DNA from: Escherichia coli
Lineage (GTDB): Bacteria > Pseudomonadota > Gammaproteobacteria > Enterobacterales > Enterobacteriaceae
DNA length: 64,000 bases
Direction: 5' to 3' (one strand)
Assembly: GCF_030013205.1 (NCBI RefSeq)
Contig: NZ_CP122648.1
Made by a program: the position numbers and the translations under genes
Shown: positions 5,471-60,075 of the stretch, piece by piece
Numbering within the stretch: the stretch's first letter is position 1
How the letters are laid out: each line of letters begins with the position of its first letter
The notes under the pieces: model-generated
Told to the model about the DNA's origin: nothing
Databases searched by the model: none
Seen by the model: the letters and a program-made list of their open reading frames with translations, nothing else

Positions 5471-5594
5471 TTTGGCGGCTCCTTTGTCTAATTTACGGAG
5501 TCTCGCCAGCACGCTGCTAAACATGGTGGCGGGACGTAACAGGGTTAGCAGACTGGTGACAAAGAAACCAGCAGGCCTTACGGCCTCCCCATTA

Positions 5595-5718
5595 CGCCCC
5601 GCCATAATACGGGAAAGGGTGGTATTACGGGCACAAAAAAACCGCATTACGGAAATATAGCGGCTACCCGCTTTGTCAATCAGGCTGCTAAACCCGGCAC
5701 CCGCTTTATGAGGTGCGG
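5595..5718 (-). ncRNA. conserved three-block noncoding element, copy A (hairpin, then T7-terminated block, then ATTATGGCGGGGCG on minus strand); candidate sRNA or leader attenuator
   Basis: blocks CGCCCCGCCATAAT, GCACAAAAAAACCGC and CAGGCTGC.AAACCCGGCACCCG.TT..TGAGGTGC recur in same order and similar spacing at 59946-60075. Confidence 0.4.
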
Positions 5719-8639: not shown

Positions 8640-8714
8640 TGGTGTCCCCTGCAGGAATCGAACCTGCAATTAGCCCTTAGGAGGGGCTCGTTATATCCAT
8701 TTAACTAAGAGGAC
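8640..8714 (-). tRNA. argW: tRNA-Arg (anticodon CCU)
   Basis: reverse complement reads GTCCTCTTAGTTAAATGGATATAACGAGCCCCTCCTAAGGGCTAATTGCAGGTTCGATTCCTGCAGGGGACACCA with T-arm GGTTCGATTCC and CCA end. Confidence 0.9.
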
Positions 8715-37462: not shown

Positions 37463-38356
37463 CTATTTCCAGTTACAAGCAGCTTGAAGTGGTTTTAGCG
37501 CGTTTGACAGGCCGTTTAAATTGAAAGTTGCACTTACAGGGCTCTCATTATAAGGAGTTATTTTTGTATACATTTTGTTTGAGTTGGCTAGTTTTCGGAT
37601 GAAATCAATGTCATTACCTTTATAAAAAACAGCCTTTGTATCTGTAGATACTAGCCAGTTTCGCTCAACTGCTTTCTGTTTATCAAGACGATAAAGCATG
37701 CTGGTTTGTTCAAGGCCTAAATATACATCCCAACTAAGAAATACTTCGGTTTTCTTTTCTCGGCAAGCTATAAACAGAGTGGGAGTAACCGCTTCTCCAA
37801 ATGGAGTTCTGATATAATCATCACTTTCTAACGATAAAATTACATTTTTCGAATCATCAATTGGCGATGTAGTAATGGATGTGTGCCATTTTCCTACATC
37901 TGTGGCTTTCTCTAATTTTGATTCAGCTTGAACAGCTTTATCCTGTGGGAATAGTTTATCGTAGCAGTTTAGTCTGGCTTCTTTATCATTTTCTGCTCGG
38001 CATTTAGATATCTCAGAAAGATTTGGTTGCTGAGCCTCTGTTGTTACTGGCTTTTCCGTTTTAGATTTTGAGTTTACAGATGGAGTAAATGTTGGAGAAA
38101 AAAAACGATCATAACAAGATAAACGTCTGTCATCATCTTTCTCATCAGGGCATTGATCTCTGCTTTCGAATTTTTCAGCAACTTTCGTTCGAGTCGGTTG
38201 TATTGACTTATCGTAACAAGAAAGTCTGTCTTTATTATTTTCTATTGCTCGGCACTGGAGTACTGCATTGAAGTTATTATGTTCAGTTGCTGCGTGAACA
38301 GGCAGTACACTAATTGATATAAATGATGCACCTATAGAAAAAATTATATTTTTCAT
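37463..38356 (-). CDS. secreted protein with three tandem Cys-containing repeats (RLSCYDK-type) and a C-terminal domain; function unknown
   Basis: 297 aa; signal peptide MKNIIFSIGASFISISVLPVHA; AT-rich; not in the remembered K-12 flk neighbourhood. Confidence 0.6.
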   Translation of the reverse strand: MKNIIFSIGASFISISVLPVHAATEHNNFNAVLQCRAIENNKDRLSCYDKSIQPTRTKVAEKFESRDQCPDEKDDDRRLSCYDRFFSPTFTPSVNSKSKTEKPVTTEAQQPNLSEISKCRAENDKEARLNCYDKLFPQDKAVQAESKLEKATDVGKWHTSITTSPIDDSKNVILSLESDDYIRTPFGEAVTPTLFIACREKKTEVFLSWDVYLGLEQTSMLYRLDKQKAVERNWLVSTDTKAVFYKGNDIDFIRKLANSNKMYTKITPYNESPVSATFNLNGLSNALKPLQAACNWK

Positions 38357-38360
38357 TTTG

Positions 38361-38702
38361 TTATCCTTTTGGTTTAGTAAGAAATACTAAAATTCCGATA
38401 ATGATATCGCCAATAACCCATAAACTTCCAATGGTAATTAAACCTAAGCCTGTACCAATAACTGCACCGGCTTTTTCGGCATCGGATGTAGCATTATTTA
38501 TTATTTCACTAGTGCCTCCCAGTCCAACTAAAAGCGTATAGATCATAAAAATATTAAATAATATAAATATCCACTTGATGAGCTTTCCAAAAAATGAACG
38601 CTTAAGTTTTTTTATTTGTTTACCGCAAGCAGGGCAATACAATGCTGAATCGCTCACCTCTTTCTGGCATTCAGGACATTTGATTAATGCCATGTAATCC
38701 AC
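38361..38702 (-). CDS. zinc-ribbon membrane protein (CPECQ...CPACG then two TM helices), GTG start
   Basis: 113 aa; starts 5 nt after upstream ORF. Confidence 0.55.
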   Translation of the reverse strand: MDYMALIKCPECQKEVSDSALYCPACGKQIKKLKRSFFGKLIKWIFILFNIFMIYTLLVGLGGTSEIINNATSDAEKAGAVIGTGLGLITIGSLWVIGDIIIGILVFLTKPKG

Positions 38703-38954: not shown

Positions 38955-39095
38955 TTACTGCTTACACTGTAAGAACGCCGCAAACTCCGCTCCCCAGAAA
39001 CTCATCCGTATTTCGCACAGCGAACCGTGCAACATCCAGATGATGAGGATTACCGTCACGCAGAACGTGATGGCTGTAAGCGATTTTTGCGACAT
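38955..39095 (-). CDS. Hok/Gef-family type I toxin-like peptide, 46 aa (not in ORF track)
   Basis: hand translation MSQKSLTAITFCVTVILIIWMLHGSLCEIRMSFWGAEFAAFLQCKQ; AAGGAG 8 nt upstream; N-terminal TM helix plus SLCE and AAFL motifs as in HokA. Confidence 0.5.
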   Translation of the reverse strand: MSQKSLTAITFCVTVILIIWMLHGSLCEIRMSFWGAEFAAFLQCKQ

Positions 39096-39285: not shown

Positions 39286-39546
39286 TTAATTCTGAGGTAA
39301 AGGCAAACTCATCTGATTGTTTCCCCTGTGTGAAGCTGGTAGCTCATGCCACGGGATACCTTCTGAAGAGTGAACGCCGGAGGCGTGTTTCGATGTGAAT
39401 TTATGGAAAGCTTCCAGTGTTGAGAAGCATACGCCGCATTCCAGATTGTTACACTGGTAATACTTTTGCCGCACGGTGTTTGAATCATTTTCCGGACGAC
39501 TTGTGCGGATACGGGCAGATGCGCCACAAAGCGGACAACGGAACAT
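39286..39546 (-). CDS. ogr: Ogr/Delta-family zinc-finger late-gene activator
   Basis: N-terminus MFRCPLCGASARIRTSR...YYQCNNLECGVCF matches the Ogr Cys4 motif. Confidence 0.85.
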   Translation of the reverse strand: MFRCPLCGASARIRTSRPENDSNTVRQKYYQCNNLECGVCFSTLEAFHKFTSKHASGVHSSEGIPWHELPASHRGNNQMSLPLPQN

Positions 39547-49048: not shown

Positions 49049-49400
49049 TATGCAAGCCTCACAATATAATTAAATGCGATGTTTTTAACGGTGTTTTCCG
49101 CGTTACCAGCAGCGTTAACGGTGATGGTGTGTCCATGTGAACCAATCGCAACAGAGTGCGTATGAGCGCCAATAGCTGATTGAGTGTGACGCCATACGCC
49201 CCACGGACCATCAGTGCCATTCCACTTATTGGCGAGTTTACGCATGTATACATTGCCGTCTCTCGTGATAAAACGTTGCGTGCCTGCAAAATTGCCAGCT
49301 GCAAAAACCTCAAGCACACCGACAGCATTATCTTCCGGGAAATTTTTCTCCAGTGTTGCGTTGGTGGATGTTGCTTTAGACCAGATGCCAGTGCATCAGC
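49048..49400 (-). pseudogene. H: C-terminal fragment (about 117 codons) of tail fibre protein (gpH/Stf type), 5'-truncated
   Basis: frame open from stop near 49400 to ...[19 protein letters not shown]; no start codon or N-terminal domain. Confidence 0.75.
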
Positions 49401-50033
49401 GTTCGCATACTTACCCGCGTGCGCCACGGTGTTGTCCATGTTACGGGAGGTCAGCGTCACGTCATTCATAACGCGTTCGCTGGCGTCGGTTCTGATGTGC
49501 TCCAGCCACCCCACGTTAACGTCCTGAAGCAACTTGTTGGTGCTGAAGTTGGACTCATCCGCGTGAGACGTGCCGTTGAAACCGATCATGATTCGGTCAA
49601 GCGCCACCTGTCGGGCAATCTGTGCGCTGATGCGGGACTGAAAATCGCTGTGTGCCGACCAGGCATCAAGCTGCGGATACGAAATAAACGTGTCGTAGTT
49701 CACCTGTTCGCACTGGTATTTGCGGTTTTTCAGATCAACCACGTTATTCGGGTTACGGCGTTTTGTTCCGTCATAACTGGTATTCGTGCGCGCAATCGGT
49801 CCTGTGGTATCCAGGAGGATTTTTTCGCCCTTCTGGTCGGTCACGCCGATCACGTTAATTCTTTTTGTAAATTCGGTGCTTTCCTTTGAGGCGTTTTCAA
49901 AACGCTGCTGTACCGAGGGTTCCACGGTAAATCGCGATACCAGTGCGGAAACCGGGATATTGTTAAGCGACGCCTGCTGCGCCATATAGCAACCCAGCTT
50001 GTTGCGGGTAATATCTGACATCACCAGATTCAT
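49400..50033 (-). pseudogene. N: major capsid protein gpN, N-terminal about 210 codons only, fused out of frame to tail-fibre fragment
   Basis: homology to P2 N (FTVEPSV, NKYxCEQ, IMxGFNG) ends near HAGKYANADALASG; track ORF 49059..50033 continues in a non-homologous frame. Confidence 0.75.
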
Positions 50034-51047: not shown

Positions 51048-52799
51048 ATGATTCAGGACGCTTTTGTGCGCCAGCGTGCGCGACAACTTTACTGGCAGGG
51101 TTATCCGCCCGCAGAAATATCACGTCTGATGGGAATAAACCCGAACACGATTTATGCGTGGAAAAAACGCGACCAGTGGGATGAAACGCCACCCGTGCAG
51201 CGTGTCACGCAGTCCATCGATGCGCGCCTCATCCAGCTTACTGAAAAACAGAATAAAACAGGCGGTGACTTTAAGGAAATAGACCTGCTGACCCGGCAGC
51301 TTAAAAAACTGCATGATGGCCAGCCGGATGTGACGGCCACAGGAAAGAAAGGCCGGGCGAAAAAACTCAAAAATCATTTCACGCCGGAACAGATTGCCGC
51401 ACTGCGGGAAAAAATCATCAGCAGGCTGGAGTGGCATCAGCGGGGCTGGTTTGACTCCCTGACCCTTTGCAGGGAAGCCGGGATACGTAACAGGATGATC
51501 CTGAAATCCCGACAGATTGGGGCGACCTGGTATTTTGCACAGGAAGCACTGCTGATGGCGCTGCGTGACGATGTGGCGCAACCTTACCAGCGTAACCAGA
51601 TTTTTTTGTCTGCGTCGCGTCGTCAGGCGTTCCAGTTTAAAAGCATTATTCAGAAGGCCGCGGCTGAAGTTGATGTGGAGCTGAAAGGGGGCGATAAAAT
51701 CATCCTCTCCAACGGCGCAGAGCTGCATTTTCTCGGCACTTCTGCTGCGTCGGCACAGTCCTATACGGGCAATTTTTATTTTGATGAATTCTTCTGGGTC
51801 AGTCGCTTTGCTGAACTGCGCAAGGTGGCTGGCGCTATGGCAACCCTCAGCGGACTGCGGCGCACCTACTTCTCCACGCCATCCACCGAAACGCACGAGG
51901 CATACGCCTACTGGAACGGCGACCGCTGGAACGAGAAAAAGGCCACGCATAAACGCCAGCGTTTTTCTGTGGACTGGAAAACGCTGCATAACGGGCTTAT
52001 CTGCCCTGACCGGACGTGGCGGCAAATTGTCACGCTGGAAGATGTGGTTAATCACGGCTGGAAACACACCGATATTGACGAAATCCGTGATGAAAACACC
52101 GAAGACGAGTTCCTCAATCTCTATATGTGTGAGTTTGTTCGCGAAGGGGAATCGGCATTTAACCTGAATATCCTGATTGGCTGCGGTGTTGACGGATACG
52201 ACGACTGGAAAGACTGGAAACCTTTTGCTCCCCGCCCGATGGGGAATCGTCCGGTATGGATTGGGTATGACGCAAACGGCAGCAGTGGCAACGGCGACAG
52301 CGGCGCTGTGTCCGTGGTGGTTCCTCCGGCTGTTCCTGGTGGCCGTTTTCGAACGGTGGAGACGCGACGCGTTCAGGGGCTGGAGTTTGAAGAACAGGCC
52401 AGAGTCATTGAAGAGTTCACGTATCGCTACAACGTGGAACACATCGGCATTGATGTGACGGGCGGGAACGGGGAGGCTGTTTATCAGATAGTGAAACGGT
52501 TTTTCCCTGCTGCTATTCCGTACACCTTCACGCTGTCATCAAAACGGTCGCTGGTACTGAAAATGCTGCAAATAATGCGTGCCGGGCGGTGGGAATACGA
52601 TCGCGCCGAACGCGAGCTGGTCGCGGCCTTTAACGCCGTGCGTAAGGTGAAAACACCGGGCGGCTTTATCACTTACGAAACGGACCGCGCGAGGGGGATC
52701 AGCCACGGCGACCTTGCGTGGGCAACCATGCTTGCTGTCATTAACGAACCGATTGGCGGCGAAGGAGAAAACGAGCGTTTCACGGTTATGGAGTTCTGA
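51048..52799 (+). CDS. P: P2 gpP-like terminase large (ATPase) subunit
   Basis: 583 aa; divergent from O as in P2. Confidence 0.85.
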   Translation: MIQDAFVRQRARQLYWQGYPPAEISRLMGINPNTIYAWKKRDQWDETPPVQRVTQSIDARLIQLTEKQNKTGGDFKEIDLLTRQLKKLHDGQPDVTATGKKGRAKKLKNHFTPEQIAALREKIISRLEWHQRGWFDSLTLCREAGIRNRMILKSRQIGATWYFAQEALLMALRDDVAQPYQRNQIFLSASRRQAFQFKSIIQKAAAEVDVELKGGDKIILSNGAELHFLGTSAASAQSYTGNFYFDEFFWVSRFAELRKVAGAMATLSGLRRTYFSTPSTETHEAYAYWNGDRWNEKKATHKRQRFSVDWKTLHNGLICPDRTWRQIVTLEDVVNHGWKHTDIDEIRDENTEDEFLNLYMCEFVREGESAFNLNILIGCGVDGYDDWKDWKPFAPRPMGNRPVWIGYDANGSSGNGDSGAVSVVVPPAVPGGRFRTVETRRVQGLEFEEQARVIEEFTYRYNVEHIGIDVTGGNGEAVYQIVKRFFPAAIPYTFTLSSKRSLVLKMLQIMRAGRWEYDRAERELVAAFNAVRKVKTPGGFITYETDRARGISHGDLAWATMLAVINEPIGGEGENERFTVMEF

Positions 52800-53845
52800 T
52801 GAGCAGAAAAAATAAAAAAGTGCGCATGAGTTCACGCATTGATCTCGCTGATGCGCTCAGGAAAGAATCATCGCTCAGTGCATTCACATTTGATGGTCCT
52901 TATCGCCTGACCGGGCATGACCTGCTGGACAATATGTACTGTGCTGATAACGGGCGGTGGTATGAAACCCCGGTGGACTGGTACGGTCTGGCAAGAGCAG
53001 CCCGGCAAACGTCCTGGCATCAGTCTGCGCTTTACTTTAAGCGCAATGTATTACTCGGTTGCTACATCCCGCACCCGCTGCTTTCCCGGCAGGATTTCTC
53101 GGCGCTGGCGCTGGACTGGTTTGTGTTCGGTAACGCATTCCTTGAGCTTCGAAGCAATATGCTCGGCGAACCGCTTAAATTACGGCACGCACTGGCGAAA
53201 TACATGCGACGCGGAAGCGATCTTGAATCATGGTGGTATGTGCAGGATGGCAAGGACGCGTTCCAGTTTCGCCCTGGCAAAGTGTGCCACCTGATGAATC
53301 CGGACATTAACCAGGAAATTTACGGCATGCCGGAATATCTTGGCGCATTACTCTCGGCAAGCCTGTCTCATTCGGCGGACATGTTCAGAAAACTGTATTA
53401 CGACAATGGATCCCACGCCGGGTGCATTATCTACATCGGTGCAGCGCAGGTAAACCGCGAAAGCATGGACTCCCTGAAAGAAACGCTACAGGGTGCGCGT
53501 GGTGGTGGTGCGTTTAAAAACGTGCTCATTCATGCGCCCAACGGGGGCAAAGAGGGGGTGCAAATTTTGCCGTTCCAGCAGATCACCGCAAAGGATGAGT
53601 TCATGAATGTTAAGGCGGCATCCCGTGATGATGTGCTGGCTGCGCACCGCGTTCCGCCGCAACTGATGGGGGCGATGCCGGGTGAAAAAAGTGCGTTTGG
53701 TGATGTGGAGAAGGCCGCGCGGGTTTACGCAATTAACGAGCTGATGCCCGTCATGGAGGCCATGAAGCACATCAATGACTGGCTTGGCGAAGAGGTGATC
53801 CGCTTTAACCCTTACGCACTGTTAGACACCCAGCCCACATCCTGA
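52799..53845 (+). CDS. Q: P2 gpQ-like portal protein
   Basis: 348 aa; start overlaps P stop (TGATG). Confidence 0.85.
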   Translation: MSRKNKKVRMSSRIDLADALRKESSLSAFTFDGPYRLTGHDLLDNMYCADNGRWYETPVDWYGLARAARQTSWHQSALYFKRNVLLGCYIPHPLLSRQDFSALALDWFVFGNAFLELRSNMLGEPLKLRHALAKYMRRGSDLESWWYVQDGKDAFQFRPGKVCHLMNPDINQEIYGMPEYLGALLSASLSHSADMFRKLYYDNGSHAGCIIYIGAAQVNRESMDSLKETLQGARGGGAFKNVLIHAPNGGKEGVQILPFQQITAKDEFMNVKAASRDDVLAAHRVPPQLMGAMPGEKSAFGDVEKAARVYAINELMPVMEAMKHINDWLGEEVIRFNPYALLDTQPTS

Positions 53846-53862
53846 CGCGCTTCGCTTGTCTG

Positions 53863-53905
53863 CTGCTTCGCCGGGGCATAAAAAATTTATGCCCCGGCGA
53901 AGCAG
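53863..53905. other. 18-bp perfect inverted repeat with 7-nt loop (CTGCTTCGCCGGGGCATA / TATGCCCCGGCGAAGCAG) just after Q; terminator or cos-adjacent site
   Basis: seen in sequence; no U tract on either side. Confidence 0.5.
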
Positions 53906-54298
53906 CTCCTGTATCAGTCAGATAATTTCACGACGCTTTCCTGCTTATTGCCATCATCGACGGTCAGACTCTTACGCAATCCCACCGCGTTGACTGCATG
54001 TTCTTCGACGCCTCAGTGCGATTTTGACGGCCTTACCTTTCACCCCATCAAATTAGAATCCCTCACGTCTTTTTCACACTCAGCGTGAGAAATACAGCCA
54101 TTCTGTTGTGTTGCTGCGACATCGTTCAGGGGATGCTATTTACCCCCTGAAACGCGGGCTGTTCCCCCGTCACCTGCGCGCAGAAAAAACGCGTTTTTTT
54201 GTGCACGTACGGATCCTTGACGGATCCAGCCACCACGCGGGCCGGAAGTACAAAAAGTCGTTCAAAAAAATTGTGCAAACTTGTGCACTATCGTGCAA

Positions 54299-54326
54299 AC
54301 AAAAAAAGCGCCTTATCGGCGCTTCA
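54299..54326 (-). terminator. intrinsic terminator (AGCGCC-loop-GGCGCT, T7 on minus strand) after 89-aa ORF
   Basis: seen in sequence. Confidence 0.6.
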
Positions 54327-54332
54327 AAAGTA

Positions 54333-54602
54333 TCAATTGTTGCTGTGTATTAATCGCCAACCACGAACATATGCTTCATAGGCATCTCTGTGCCTTACAG
54401 TTCCAGCCTGGCTAAACGGAATGTTAGCTAAAACTAAATCATTCTGAGCCATAGCGCGTCCTTCAAGCGCATCTTTTATGCCTAGCTCAAAAGCACAGGC
54501 AGCGCATTTGTGCCGACCTTCTTGTCCTTGATATTCAGGGAGAGACAGAAATGTTGGATTATAACGATGAGGGTTCTTGCAAATACCTGTTTTAGCCCGC
54601 AC
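54333..54602 (-). CDS. hypothetical 89-aa protein with Cys/His cluster (CKNPH...RHKCAAC); possible zinc-binding
   Basis: ORF track; sits beside cos in the tin/old position; own terminator. Confidence 0.45.
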   Translation of the reverse strand: MRAKTGICKNPHRYNPTFLSLPEYQGQEGRHKCAACAFELGIKDALEGRAMAQNDLVLANIPFSQAGTVRHRDAYEAYVRGWRLIHSNN

Positions 54603-54619
54603 TTTATTTACCTCATAGG

Positions 54620-54766
54620 AAAAATATGCGTGCCTTTACAGAGGTGCGTGTAAGCAATAAAATATACGACGCACATTTTGATTTACTTCGGAAGGCACGC
54701 ATATCAGGTTAAGTGAGTCCGACCGAGTTTTACGCCCCAATAGTTGCTGCTATTGGGGCGTTTTGC
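54620..54766 (+). ncRNA. candidate structured small RNA: 12-bp outer stem (TATGCGTGCCTT/AAGGCACGCATA) enclosing an inner hairpin, then 12-bp-stem intrinsic terminator with T4
   Basis: seen in sequence; no ORF; divergent from 89-aa gene. Confidence 0.35.
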
Positions 54767-54966
54767 ATGGACAATGCCGCGCAATTATCTTGTCGCTCAC
54801 AATGCGAACGATCTTACAAAAAGGCACATTACTGTCAAGATAATTGATCGTTTTAATCGATAGATAATAGACAATCTATTTGTTTAACAGATCGATTATT
54901 GAAGTAAGTGTGCCAAGTGGAATGATACTGTCTCTATAAACGTGAGCATTTTTCGCGCAGATGCTT

Positions 54967-55278
54967 TTACTCAGGAAATAACGCCCGGATATTCCCAGCC
55001 ATCTGGCTGGTTATCTTAGCCACTGGTGCAGACTGTGCTTCAAACTTTTTTGAGCTGATTTGTGTCACAGGTAACATCTCATCATCAGCCCATGCGGCCA
55101 GTCGGTAAGCCTCTGCCGGATTCGTCTTCAGAAGTGCCAGCCCGGCCAGAAAAGCCACGCGTTGGCCGCTTTTGCGGGCTTCTGGTGTAAGGCTGTCCAG
55201 CCAGGCGCATGCTTCTCCTTCGTTCTTGACGGCAGCTGGCTTCAGATAGAAACTTATCCGTCTGGTTGGTGTTGTCAT
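54967..55278 (-). CDS. ParR-like DNA-binding adaptor, about 104 aa from MTTPTRRISFYLK
   Basis: resembles remembered plasmid R1 ParR N-terminus (RRTIAFKL...LDSIPQGERSRLNRAALTAGLALY vs RRISFYLK...LDSLTPEARKSGQRVAFLAGLALL); AAGGAG inside parM 3' end. Confidence 0.6.
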   Translation of the reverse strand: MTTPTRRISFYLKPAAVKNEGEACAWLDSLTPEARKSGQRVAFLAGLALLKTNPAEAYRLAAWADDEMLPVTQISSKKFEAQSAPVAKITSQMAGNIRALFPE

Positions 55279-55282
55279 TGGT

Positions 55283-56242
55283 TTACTCCTTGTCCATTGC
55301 GTACAGCCCATTAACCAGAGCAAACTGTGGCACCCCGTCCGCGATGAAAGTCGCATTAACTCCGCAGGCTTCGCGGATAGCGGGTGCCACAATCTCCGCC
55401 CCGCCACCGACAACCATCACCCGCCCGTAACCCGAAAAACCCGCCAGCGCGCGGATCACGCGTTGTTTCAGTGTTTCTTCCTTTTCACGAATAACCGCCA
55501 TCAGGCTGGCGTAATGCGCGTCATTGTGGATGTGCTGGCGCAGCCAGGCTTCATCATGGCGATGTTCGATAATGGTATTGGCGATGTGGTGACTGGTACG
55601 CATACCGTTAGTGGCCATCACCGACAGTACGGCATCGGCCATCAGGGAAACGCCTACGTGTGGATCGCAAAACACCTGGCTGATACCTGCCAGTTGTCCC
55701 TGAACCTTTGCCACATCCAGCGTGGTTCCGCCTAAATCCACAATCAGCAGGGATTCAAACGGACTCATGTCAGCCAGTGCTTTAAAGCCAGCCGGAATGG
55801 ATTCAGGCATAACCCGTACGTTACGGATAGTGAATGCTTCGCCGTTCTGGTACTCCACCGGGCGCATGACGTTCGCTTTTTTGCGGTTGATGTTGGCCAT
55901 GTCCGGCTGTGCGTTTGTGTCGAAATATTCGCTCAGTGGCAGGGTGACAACCACATCCACTTCCTGTGGTGTGATGCCTGATTTGACCAGCGCGTGATGA
56001 ATGGCAATGACATTCACATCGCTGTACTGGTATTGCGTGTCGGTCGTCTGGACAAAGCGATCGCTGACCGGATCAAAACCATAGCGCACGCCATCAAGCA
56101 TGTAGTTCGCGGGCTGCGTGCCACCGAACGGCGCAGACCATTCCGACTTGAAGCTGTTCGGGCTGATGGCGTTGCGGCGTTCGCCGTTCTCAGTCCATGC
56201 CAGCTTGATGTTGGTGGAGCCGTCATCGATACAAATTTTCAT
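55283..56242 (-). CDS. ParM/StbA-like actin-family ATPase
   Basis: 319 aa; N-terminal MKICIDDGSTNIKLAW and LIVDLGGTTLD phosphate-binding motifs as in plasmid R1 ParM. Confidence 0.75.
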   Translation of the reverse strand: MKICIDDGSTNIKLAWTENGERRNAISPNSFKSEWSAPFGGTQPANYMLDGVRYGFDPVSDRFVQTTDTQYQYSDVNVIAIHHALVKSGITPQEVDVVVTLPLSEYFDTNAQPDMANINRKKANVMRPVEYQNGEAFTIRNVRVMPESIPAGFKALADMSPFESLLIVDLGGTTLDVAKVQGQLAGISQVFCDPHVGVSLMADAVLSVMATNGMRTSHHIANTIIEHRHDEAWLRQHIHNDAHYASLMAVIREKEETLKQRVIRALAGFSGYGRVMVVGGGAEIVAPAIREACGVNATFIADGVPQFALVNGLYAMDKE

Positions 56243-56272
56243 GTCGCTTTTCCTTATGTTGATTAATTAATC

Positions 56273-56383
56273 GCTTACGGGATTCTGAAATCCCGTTTTT
56301 GCCTGTTTTATGCGCGCTTCATATATCGCGGCGCGTTTTTTGCTCATTTACGGGATTTGTGAATCCCGTTTCTGTCTGTTTTT
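56273..56383. repeat. two about 37-bp direct repeats, each a hairpin followed by a T-run (ACGGGATTCTGAAATCCCGT TTTTGCCTGTTTT; ACGGGATTTGTGAATCCCGT TTCTGTCTGTTTTTT)
   Basis: seen in sequence upstream of parM-like gene, second copy inside 3' end of A. Confidence 0.5.
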
Positions 56384-59141
56384 TGTTTCCACTGGTCAGG
56401 CCTCCCCGCAGCAGGTCTGCTTTGCGGCGGGCGCGTTCAGTGGTTTCACTGATTCTCTGTGCGTGCTCTGCGTCGCGGATGGCGCGCAGCATGTCAGAAA
56501 GCACGGTAACGGGTGTTTTCATGGTGTTCTGGTCCTGCTGAAGTGTGGATGCCAGGCGTGCGGCGGCTTCGGGGTCTGATGCCCCCAGCTGTTCCAGATA
56601 GCTGGCGACCGGGTTATGGCGGATCTCCGTGCTGCTTACGCCGTGGTTACGGCTCAGGCGCTGCCAGAGCTGCGTGATCCGGCTGTCCGGTCGGGTATCC
56701 GGTTTGCGTACAATTTCAAATCCCTGCGGTGCAATGATGCTGCCGTCGACGTACAGACTGCCGCCCCGTAACAGGTGCTGCATCTGCTGTTCACCGATAT
56801 GCAGGCCGAGAGATTCAGCAGACTCCCGCCATTCTTTAGCGAGTAACTCGTGGTTATCAGGCAAAGGCCGTGGCTGTTTGCGGCTCTGTGTCCAGTTCTG
56901 CATTTCATCACTGCTGTTTTTTGCCTGTTTGTCACGCAGCGAACGCATCAGCGCCCGGCGTTCGTGCCGTTTCAGTGAGCGCATCCATTCATTCACGTCA
57001 ACGCCGTCAGGAAGCTGCGGCCACGGTGCTGGCCGTTCTTCCGGCTGTTCTGTCCCGTTGTTGTCCGTTTCCTGTACACGGGGACAGTTATTGCCACGAG
57101 TCCAAGGGGCGGCAGGGCCGCCCTGAAGGTCAAAACCATTTTCGCGGGCGCTGTCTTCCGCTTCCGGTTTACGTCTTACCAGCTTCCAGTTATCCGGATG
57201 TGTGCACACACGGGAAGACTCCCCGATGAGCGGTGACCAGATCCCGTAAATCTGTACGCTCTGTTCGCCGTAATCGTTCAGCTCATCTGCGAGGTCGTAG
57301 GCGGTGCGAATCAGGTAGTCTTTGCGTGGAACAAGTACGCCGCCCTGTTTTTCAATGTAGGAGGCAAAACACCCGGCATCAGCGGCAGCGAGCACTGCAT
57401 CCATTGCGTCATCCTTCAGTCGTTGCGGGCCTTCCGGGTTGCGTGCCATCTGGCTGGCAAGGCGGCGCAGTTCACGCCACACCTGACGGGAGGGGATGCC
57501 AAAGAACTGGAACTGGCGGACCCGGTGAAGGCGCGCCCAGCCGATGGCGCGCTCCACGCTCTCGGCCATTGATTTTCCGGTTTCGTGGTCAACGCGTGGC
57601 TTGCCCGTTTTCGGGTCGATACCATCCACGGCGCGGCTGTCCAGGTTCTTTCCGATGTAGGTGGCGATGTAGCTGGTTGGCGTGCCTTTTGAGCCGTCGA
57701 CGTACTCCGCCTTAAAACGCGGAGTTATGTCATCGCCCAGCTCGTGGCGGTCTTCCTGAATGGCAATATCGCAGACGTGGGACACGATGGTTTCAATCTC
57801 GTCCGGATGTGCAAAGACCATCATATGCCAGTGCACAGTGCCGTCATGGTGAGGCTCCACCGTGCGGATGCCATACCAGCGAAGACCGTCGCGGTTCAGT
57901 TTTTTGCGGACCGCCGCAAAAAACGTGTTAACCAGGTAATCGCTGGAGTCGCGCATGGTGGCCCCGTTCCATTTGGGATTCGGATGACCGTTCTCTGTTG
58001 TGGCGTGGTATTTTGACGGGCAGGTGACAGTCAGAAACACCGCTCTGTCGCCACGGGCTTCGGCCAGAAGTTCCAGTCCCTTCATGGTGGCCATCATTTC
58101 TGCCTTACGGTGAACCGGGTTACTTACTCCCGCGTAATACACCGTCTCGAGATCAATCGTGAACCCGTCTTCATTTTCCAGCATGAAACTTTTCAGGAAA
58201 TCGCGTGTTTTCTCGCGCTGTGCGCGAAACTCGCTTAACGCGTCCTGGCTCAGATAGGGTGATGTTTTTCTGGAAACCAGACAGGCGGCGCGGAGTTGTT
58301 CTTCTCTCCACTCGCAACGTAACAGCCACAGTTTGCGTTTCCACCATTCCGCACAGGTCAGGCGAAGGATTGCGCCCGGCAGCAGCTCCGTGTCCGGTTC
58401 GTTCCTCCGGTCTTTGTCTGTTGTCAGTGCGTCATAATGTGGAGGCATGGCGTGCAGGTGTAACGCCATGCGGGCCAGCATCTGATACGCCTTCAGCGTT
58501 ACATCCATGGTCAGTTCGCCATCAGTAGCGCCAAAGCCATCGCAGAGTTTTTCGAAGGTGCTGCTGAACATCGCCGCCGTCATGGTGGCCAGCGTCTGTA
58601 TCTGGTGTTTGTTGAGCTGCGGCAGGTAAAGCAAATCGTCCAGGCGTTCGCGTCCGGCAAGGGAGCGATAACCCGGTGTCAGCCAGCGGTGATCGGTGCG
58701 GTCCAGACGTTCGAATATTTTGCGCAGGGTTCCGCGCGCGTAGCGTTCCGCCTGCCAGCTCTTTTTGCCTTTCTGACGATCGGCTTCCTGCTTCTTGCGC
58801 AGGAAGGAGAGGTGGCGAATAAGCGGATCGCGCAGATAGGACGGCAGCAGGCGCAGCGAGGCCATGGCTTCATCCACCGCGCCGCGTGCCTGTTTTCTGG
58901 CGTCTCCTGCCAGTGTGATGGTTTTGTCCTGTTTTTCCTGTGCGTCCAGGCTTTTATTAATCAGGTTGCCCAGCGGCGTGGCGGAGAACGCCGCATCAGC
59001 CATTTCCTGGCGGCGCTCGTTCTCTACCCGGTAGGCATCCAGCCAGGAGGAAAGCGCGGATTCAGGAGCGGAGATCCCCGTTCCTTCACGCCCCACTGCG
59101 TGGCGCGGTTGTTGCCAGTCCCTGATGTACTCTGCCGTCAT
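56319..59141 (-). CDS. A: P2 gpA-like replication initiation endonuclease, extended (940 aa)
   Basis: rolling-circle Rep motifs and tyrosine region; about 180 aa longer than remembered P2 A. Confidence 0.85.
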   Translation of the reverse strand: MTAEYIRDWQQPRHAVGREGTGISAPESALSSWLDAYRVENERRQEMADAAFSATPLGNLINKSLDAQEKQDKTITLAGDARKQARGAVDEAMASLRLLPSYLRDPLIRHLSFLRKKQEADRQKGKKSWQAERYARGTLRKIFERLDRTDHRWLTPGYRSLAGRERLDDLLYLPQLNKHQIQTLATMTAAMFSSTFEKLCDGFGATDGELTMDVTLKAYQMLARMALHLHAMPPHYDALTTDKDRRNEPDTELLPGAILRLTCAEWWKRKLWLLRCEWREEQLRAACLVSRKTSPYLSQDALSEFRAQREKTRDFLKSFMLENEDGFTIDLETVYYAGVSNPVHRKAEMMATMKGLELLAEARGDRAVFLTVTCPSKYHATTENGHPNPKWNGATMRDSSDYLVNTFFAAVRKKLNRDGLRWYGIRTVEPHHDGTVHWHMMVFAHPDEIETIVSHVCDIAIQEDRHELGDDITPRFKAEYVDGSKGTPTSYIATYIGKNLDSRAVDGIDPKTGKPRVDHETGKSMAESVERAIGWARLHRVRQFQFFGIPSRQVWRELRRLASQMARNPEGPQRLKDDAMDAVLAAADAGCFASYIEKQGGVLVPRKDYLIRTAYDLADELNDYGEQSVQIYGIWSPLIGESSRVCTHPDNWKLVRRKPEAEDSARENGFDLQGGPAAPWTRGNNCPRVQETDNNGTEQPEERPAPWPQLPDGVDVNEWMRSLKRHERRALMRSLRDKQAKNSSDEMQNWTQSRKQPRPLPDNHELLAKEWRESAESLGLHIGEQQMQHLLRGGSLYVDGSIIAPQGFEIVRKPDTRPDSRITQLWQRLSRNHGVSSTEIRHNPVASYLEQLGASDPEAAARLASTLQQDQNTMKTPVTVLSDMLRAIRDAEHAQRISETTERARRKADLLRGGLTSGNKKQTETGFTNPVNEQKTRRDI

Positions 59142-59816: not shown

Positions 59817-59945
59817 GGTGTGGCCCCTTGTGTAGTAAGTTGTGAAAACTCACCATCCAGAGCTGCGAAACTGTGGGTGGCGAGACGTACGAGGTTCGCA
59901 GTACCGGCTACACAAGAACCCGGCCCGACCGAAGTCGGCCCCGTA

Positions 59946-60075
59946 CGCCCCGCCATAATTCTGACGCGAAAAAAACGTGGCAATACAGTACGCACAAAAA
60001 AACCGCTGGCGCGGTTGTGCGCTTGTGTAGTCAGCAGGCTGCGAAACCCGGCACCCGTTTTGTGAGGTGCAGCGG
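59946..60075 (-). ncRNA. conserved three-block noncoding element, copy B (candidate sRNA/attenuator; minus-strand hairpin plus ACCGC-GCCA-GCGGT-T7 terminator)
   Basis: same three blocks as 5595-5718 in same order; track ORF 59510..60127 judged a spurious translation. Confidence 0.4.

Follow-up and report, generated by a model that had tools for sequence, protein, structure and literature searches.

A plasmid-type ParM/ParR pair with candidate parC repeats beside the replication gene of P88-like prophages in Escherichia coli

Why should a phage that integrates into the chromosome of its host carry a segregation module of the plasmid type? The question is raised by a locus in a stretch of 64,000 nucleotides of Escherichia coli DNA (assembly GCF_030013205.1, contig NZ_CP122648.1), called here the window, in which a P2-like prophage carries genes for an actin-like ATPase, ParM, and for an adaptor protein, ParR, between its portal gene Q and its replication gene A. 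An earlier note on this DNA, made from the letters alone, had proposed such a pair, together with upstream repeats resembling the plasmid centromere parC and a separate small Cys/His protein. It had called the module unexpected in an integrating phage and had offered a phage-plasmid lifestyle or a repurposed cytoskeletal function as explanations. All four features are present where the note had placed them (Table 1), and the interval between Q/cos and A is, as it had supposed, a known hotspot of P2 phages (PMC9122126).

Both protein assignments hold in the profile searches that the note had proposed as a check. Residues 1-157 of ParM match the Pfam family StbA_N (2.5e-82), residues 159-316 match the C-terminal domain family PF21523 (2e-68), and a phmmer search against the Protein Data Bank (PDB) aligns the protein end to end with ParM of plasmid R1 (1MWK, E=9e-93, residues 2-316). 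The alignment keeps the phosphate-1 motif IDDGSTN, the residues E147 and D169 (the latter in DLGGTTLD; E148 and D170 in R1 ParM) and the adenosine motif GGGAE. The sequence is 100% identical to that of ParM of the inducible phage P88. In NCBIfam, ParM reaches only sub-threshold scores, 19-22 bits against cut-offs above 200, and neither ParR nor the 89-residue Cys/His protein has a match; the curated equivalogs miss this lineage, and the identity of ParM is settled by Pfam and PDB.

ParR belongs to Pfam family Plasmid_stab_B (PF10784, 1.3e-23) and to phrog_2515, 'partition protein' (2.3e-59). Searched alone against PDB it finds no match; a profile built from ParR and ten relatives matches the structure of ParR/StbB of plasmid pB171 (2JD3, 9.8e-16) over the ribbon-helix-helix (RHH) domain. 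Along the protein, a beta-strand at the N-terminus (TRRISFYLKP) is followed by a hypervariable linker and, at the C-terminus, by the tail NIRALFPE. When it is aligned with ParR of the R1 type, the N-terminal beta-strand pattern and the extreme C-terminal motif agree and the linker is shorter; the tail, of the form N-I-x-x-L/F-F-P, pairs with the extreme C-terminus of R1 ParR, KKNAMKLIN, at the level of sequence. The ATG of parR stands 4 nt past the stop codon of parM, with GGAG inside the last parM codons, which makes translational coupling of the two genes plausible. To judge by these sequence comparisons, the two genes encode a real plasmid-type ParM/ParR pair whose functional parts appear intact.

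The locus is already known from databases and literature. RefSeq names its genes 'plasmid segregation protein ParM' and 'plasmid partitioning/stability family protein', and the survey of the Q-A hotspot by Rousset et al. 2022 (PMC9122126) recorded a putative partition system in roughly one P2-like phage in four. Of 5426 complete E. coli genomes, 1303 (~24%) contain the cassette, so that the word 'unexpected' does not fit it, and 1447 of the 1449 copies in these genomes are chromosomal. The view of the cassette as a variable accessory has likewise to be given up. All 80 loci retrieved from IMG/VR hold a full-length ParM of 319 amino acids beside A, 99-100% identical to the query; what varies is the segment from parR to Q, which measures 987-3070 bp and falls into 25 types in 43 loci, with the variation beginning past the parR stop codon. 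The order A-parM-parR-cargo-(ogr)-Q is kept in P2-like prophages of Plesiomonas, Hafnia, Serratia and Enterobacter (ParM identity 63%, 62%, 58% and 54%, respectively), with one or two extra open reading frames (ORFs) between A and parM in Hafnia and Enterobacter. parMR is a conserved backbone component of P88-like and related P2-family phages, and only the DNA past parR is variable cargo. The note had itself said that a cassette proving to be a common fixed component of the phage lineage with a demonstrated replication role would refute it; of this, the half on the fixed component holds.

At 53% ParM identity the genomic context is a Rep3 plasmid. ParMs of plasmids are at most 52% identical to the phage protein, and none lies between 52% and 99%, which argues for an old phage lineage of ParM; a recent capture from a plasmid was rejected for this gap, and the module is taken as an ancient component that this phage lineage has inherited vertically. 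Strong purifying selection acts on parM, with a ratio of non-synonymous to synonymous substitution rates (dN/dS) of about 0.05 over 69 distinct alleles. In parR, for which the 80 loci yield 50 distinct protein sequences, the corresponding ratio for polymorphisms (pN/pS) is 0.11 in the N-domain and 0.05 in the C-terminal tail, as against 0.58 in the linker (codons 63-90, window ~55009-55092). In Megablast comparisons across E. coli genomes, matches end inside parR at about 55133 or 55224, which suggests that the points at which backbone and cargo recombine are located in parR itself.

The DNA upstream of parM contains two 38-nt direct repeats, 82% identical and 73 nt apart, and both copies hold a perfect palindrome with 8-bp arms, ACGGGATT-N4-AATCCCGT. 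This pattern occurs at just these two sites in the window, even with three mismatches allowed; 0.30 occurrences are expected, and two were reached in 3 of 100 shuffles. The repeats proposed by the note stand as a parC-like candidate with two palindrome units and a layout kept across genera, with the correction that the distal one sits inside the 3' end of gene A, a detail that it had missed. E. coli, Plesiomonas and Hafnia loci have in common a leader core, TTAATCAA, two units 72-73 bp apart at an equal distance from the parM ATG, an 18-bp CGGG...CCCG frame in these units, and the ParR beta-strand TRR(I/V)SFYL. The best 20-mer repeats in this set agree at 18/20 and 16/20 positions (0/200 shuffles reach each), and the third at 14/20 (p ~0.07). 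Serratia and Enterobacter phages have the ParR strand NRKISFYL, and conserved inverted arms of 19-20 bp around a variable spacer of ~28 bp. This co-variation, across genera, of repeat type with the strand of ParR predicted to read DNA supports the assignment, and the upstream repeats are credible parC candidates and putative ParR sites.

A second reading of the palindromes, as an RNA hairpin or terminator, was rejected. They score as terminators on the plus strand, yet no plus-strand gene enters them; natural variants disrupt inner stem pairs without compensation; and the equivalent units of Plesiomonas retain the 18-bp CGGG...CCCG frame but have a stem of only 4 bp. On these three grounds a protein-binding site in duplex DNA is preferred.

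Of the known systems, the ParMRC locus of plasmids R1/NR1 (parA/stb) stands close in its proteins. Its ParM is ~47% identical over the full length, the order parC-parM-parR is the same, ParR shows the same RHH-type strand pattern at the N-terminus and a K/R-x-N-x-x-x-L motif at the C-terminus, and the upstream region is rich in A-tracts. The differences concern the replicon and the site: R1 is a theta-replicating plasmid, whereas the locus described here belongs to an integrating myovirus with rolling-circle replication; parC of R1 consists of two sets of five tandem 11-bp iterons flanking a consensus promoter, as opposed to a pair of 38-nt units, spaced 73 bp apart, that each hold a 20-bp palindrome. 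The phage locus has no detected promoter of its own, its ParR linker is ~30 residues shorter, and its distal site overlaps the coding end of A. No tandem 11-bp iterons of the R1 type were found in the phage loci examined, and R1-type loci show the two classical clusters. StbA/StbB of par1 on plasmid pB171 of enteropathogenic E. coli resemble the phage pair in that its ParR too falls into PF10784 and its RHH domain is matched by the family profile; the failure of phage ParR alone to match any PDB entry marks the relationship as distant, and the replicon context is again different.

Gene A, which precedes parM on the minus strand in the order A, parM, parR, 89-residue ORF, is assigned to phrog_91, 'nicking at origin of replication' (6.2e-275), and is annotated in RefSeq as 'replication endonuclease'. 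Its stop codon lies at 56319-56321. No minus-strand terminator was found between A and parM, and no sigma-70-like promoter within 250 bp upstream of parM, even at 8/12 matches. Since parMR seems to have neither a promoter of its own nor a terminator separating it from A, it is probably co-transcribed with A among the early-operon genes, and most likely stands at the downstream end of the early lytic operon.

We propose that parM, parR and the candidate parC units form a complete type II (ParMRC) locus that insures a transient phage circle against loss at cell division. This is the explanation that we favor, with a confidence slightly short of even. ParR dimers would bind the two palindrome units, 73 bp or seven helical turns apart, through their N-terminal beta-strand, and the conserved C-terminal tail of ParR would hold ATP-ParM filaments by their ends. 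With a ParR-parC complex at either end, the growing filaments would push sister circles apart in the style of plasmid R1. parMR would be made along with A while the genome is an extrachromosomal circle under A-driven rolling-circle replication, in the interval between infection and integration, or following excision. Circles of low copy number would in this way be distributed to both cell halves or daughters, as a transient insurance without the upkeep of a plasmid prophage.

The best functional analogue of such an arrangement is SrpMRC of the SXT/R391 integrative and conjugative elements (ICEs), which stabilises the excised form, replicated by the relaxase, and whose expression is confined to the excision programme (PMC4489591). 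It too is a type II locus on a normally integrated element that passes through a transient circle by means of an HUH-type nickase, and the role proposed for the phage locus is the same. The two differ in their proteins, SrpM being far from R1 ParM and SrpR having no recognisable domain, whereas the phage proteins are close relatives of those of R1; moreover, SrpMRC belongs to an ICE, and its function has been demonstrated.

Several points weigh against the insurance of a transient circle. Lytic replication of the P2 type yields many copies, for which active partition seems needless. A weak or ParR-controlled promoter could escape scans for a consensus. The co-variation of repeats and ParR strands rests on two lineage groups only; units in the E. 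coli lineage are no better kept than their flanks, with a variability of 0.025-0.068 against 0.034 in the coding region of A; and the candidate parC has two units, where R1 has ten 11-bp iterons. The searchable literature yielded no experimental work on ParM in P2-like phages, the record found consisting of one sentence of Rousset et al. 2022 and of mentions at the level of annotation. Finally, the prophage of the window is defective, as detailed below, and the module, though intact, probably cannot serve the proposed role there.

The position of the cassette directly downstream of A, apparently on one transcript, would also suit a task within the lytic cycle. ParMR might position or spread phage circles, or work with the HUH nickase A, and raise the efficiency of replication or packaging, with inheritance by the daughters beside the point. 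In such a case ParMRC would be a phage DNA cytoskeleton coupled to A: ParR on its sites over the 3' end of A would, with ParM filaments, organise or stimulate the replication that A drives and the delivery of monomeric circles to packaging. P2-type phages do package monomeric circles. In both E. coli and Plesiomonas the 3' end of A contains the distal parC candidate, and ParM and ParR of R1 bind TraI and stimulate nicking (PMC4949242). A parallel is offered by AlpAC/alpS of the Corynebacterium glutamicum prophage CGP3, an actin/adaptor pair induced early and needed for efficient replication of phage DNA (PMC4446434): there too an integrated prophage encodes an actin-like ATPase and an adaptor that binds its own upstream sites and links circular phage DNA to filaments. 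AlpC is, however, of a distant actin-like family, its host is Gram-positive, and the adaptor gene comes first. The extra ORFs between A and parM in Hafnia and Enterobacter show that tight linkage to A is not universal, about three quarters of E. coli P2-like phages replicate without ParMR, and there is no evidence of contact between A and ParM or ParR. We regard a lytic role of this kind as rather unlikely; an A-coupled ParMRC cytoskeleton would, if real, be without precedent among Gram-negative tailed phages of ordinary genome size.

Less probable still is that the carriers are true phage-plasmids which live for many generations as low-copy plasmids, with ParMRC and the toxin gene hok securing their inheritance. 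The idea, the first of the two explanations in the earlier note, was also raised in passing by Rousset et al. 2022 (PMC9122126). The phage indeed holds a gene of the Hok/Gef family and with it, next to parMRC, homologues of both R1 stability systems; on plasmids, hok is enriched where Par proteins occur (bioRxiv 10.1101/2025.08.07.668861). Phage-plasmids with partition genes are well represented by P1, P7 and N15 (ParAB) and by D6, whose StbA is 47.8% identical to ParM; but these live as plasmids with dedicated replicons and without integration, whereas P88-like phages integrate. The nearly exclusive chromosomal residence of the cassette speaks against plasmid life, an integrase is present in all complete elements examined, and no plasmid-type Rep gene is annotated in them, A being the sole annotated replication initiator. 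Nine plasmid records contain the cassette, of which eight are replicons of 228 kb-1.4 Mb or a linear 26.8-kb prophage fragment. The ninth, NZ_CP148288.1, is the only phage-sized circle found among 72,556 plasmids: a 'plasmid' of 34,461 bp, it consists of a whole P88-like genome joined next to int. The phage of this record, from a cat isolate, is present as an integrated prophage in a human isolate of the same study series (NZ_CP148378.1; 100% identity over 7 kb), and the circle may just as well stem from an excised phage in replication that long-read assembly picked up. Free phage circles thus exist, while a stable life as a plasmid prophage is poorly supported and not the rule.

The module might also act from the integrated state, ParR of the resident prophage titrating or repressing parC of superinfecting relatives or plasmids, as a form of partition incompatibility or exclusion. 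The cassette lies at the Q-A defence hotspot, is kept intact in defective prophages (that of the window and an O157:H7 remnant), and in some E. coli genomes is present in up to three copies with one parC type. However, its invariance is unlike true hotspot cargo, which is highly variable, and PADLOC, which gave no match for ParM, ParR or the 89-residue protein, places the cassette in no defence family; a defence-system reading was dropped on that result. ParRs of plasmids are too distant for cross-reaction, a tblastn search returning only prophage-derived copies, and the parC iterons of R1 differ. Titration would, in addition, make ParM superfluous, yet parM is the most constrained gene. Competition of this sort is, in our estimate, very improbable. 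That the cassette is a functionless hitch-hiker, caught from a plasmid by an ancestral phage and not yet lost, would agree with the lack of a demonstrated function and with the many defective carriers, but is close to refuted by the selection on parM and the domain-specific constraint on parR, and has against it the same position kept in at least five genera and the tight packaging-size limits of P2-like genomes.

About a quarter of E. coli P2-like prophages, along with relatives in at least four other genera, thus keep a segregation machine under strong selection despite integrating. To explain it would show how temperate phages handle the risky interval as a free circle and would help to place the boundary between phages, plasmids and ICEs. 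The system is tractable, with inducible phages to work on (P88 and phiSM) and a cassette of just 1.4 kb. For annotation, a match to ParM/ParR in an enterobacterial chromosome most often means a P88-like prophage, not an integrated plasmid.

Table 1. Positions of the partition genes, candidate sites and neighboring features in the window
Feature	Position	Strand	Remarks
Portal gene Q	52799-53845	+	TIGR01540 3.9e-64, phrog_68; other boundary of the hotspot
21-nt perfect inverted repeat	53862-53906		follows Q
Intrinsic-terminator-like hairpin with T-run	54305-54325	-	closes the minus-strand unit
89-aa Cys/His protein	54333-54602	-	phrog_3941, 6.3e-49; hotspot cargo gene
Non-coding cargo segment	54603-54966		364 bp; promoter-like sites 54811-54838 (-) and 54635-54663 (+)
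parR	54967-55278	-	predicted ribbon-helix-helix centromere-binding adaptor (StbB/ParR type), 103 aa
parM	55283-56242	-	actin-fold segregation ATPase, 319 aa
parM leader	56250-56272	-	GATTAATTAATC (56261-56272), then Shine-Dalgarno AAGGAA (56250-56255)
Proximal parC candidate unit	56275-56312		A-tract and palindrome ACGGGATTCTGAAATCCCGT (56277-56296), within the 76-bp A-parM spacer
Distal parC candidate unit	56348-56385		palindrome ACGGGATTTGTGAATCCCGT (56350-56369), in the last ~22 codons of gene A
Gene A	56319-59141	-	P2-family rolling-circle replication endonuclease, 940 aa; directly upstream of parM

The prophage that carries the locus extends over about 37.4-63.3 kb of the window. The region is 95-98% identical to the Xuanwuvirus phages P88, 520873 and 503458 and to Citrobacter phage phiSM, and the window is a 100% match to E. 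coli K_EC180 (NZ_CP062203.1), where the prophage lies between flk and pdxB. The element is a defective P88-like (Xuanwuvirus) prophage: it has a frameshifted integrase gene and a truncated major capsid gene that is joined to tail-fibre fragments (around 49059-50033), and it lacks the genes for baseplate, lysis and small terminase. A, parM and parR are intact. The O157:H7 remnant prophage also keeps A-parM-parR, beside an IS3 fragment. In K_EC180, three chromosomal places match the parMR cassette; several P88-like elements with one parC type therefore coexist in one cell.

The Cys/His protein encoded past parR is, as the note had supposed, a separate gene, and it is true variable cargo of the hotspot: one of 42 IMG/VR loci has its ORF, and two others have a relative of 63% identity. 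On its own strand it has a promoter-like site and a terminator (Table 1). Pfam has no match for it; an exhaustive search found 172 representative relatives. In 44 of these, C8, H12, R30, G41, Q65 and R70 never vary, and H31, C33, C36 and H71 hardly do; the conserved Cys and His residues would fit a metal site. A model made with AlphaFold2 is confident (predicted local distance difference test, pLDDT, 93), and no fold relative was found among solved structures. The same domain also occurs fused to DGQHR/DpdB-like, WYL, HNH/type II restriction-like, PD-T4-1/PDC-S36-like, DUF3883 and GmrSD-N proteins, and its role may be that of an accessory domain, directed at DNA, in defence-type nucleases. The non-coding segment between this ORF and parR contains a 12-bp GC hairpin (54732-54761), and the plus strand at 54668-54772 folds into a GC hairpin of 13 bp with a U-run behind it (z = -3.8); the latter could be an antisense RNA of ~100 nt or a terminator opposite the leader of the ORF.

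At the other end of the prophage, the Hok/Gef-family toxin gene (46 aa, 38955-39095, minus strand) adjoins ogr (39286-39546, minus strand); it is also found in the circular P88-like record NZ_CP148288.1. At its gathering threshold, Rfam shows no Sok RNA. Beyond hok, a gene annotated as 'type VI secretion system-associated protein TagO' and one for a zinc-ribbon membrane protein (37463-38702, minus strand) give this end the look of a second cargo site. ORF1 of phiSM has been reported as a VasI-family gene of the type VI secretion system.

Rfam places a C4 antisense RNA (59873-59960) and the small RNA isrK (59996-60070), both on the minus strand, in the early region of the prophage. A second C4/isrK copy (5522-5609 and 5635-5716, minus strand) lies near tRNA-Arg(CCT) at 8640-8714; the two copies score 83 and 80 bits for C4, and 64 and 52 bits for isrK. 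They suggest an immI/antirepressor control module of the P1 type and a further mobile element in the window.

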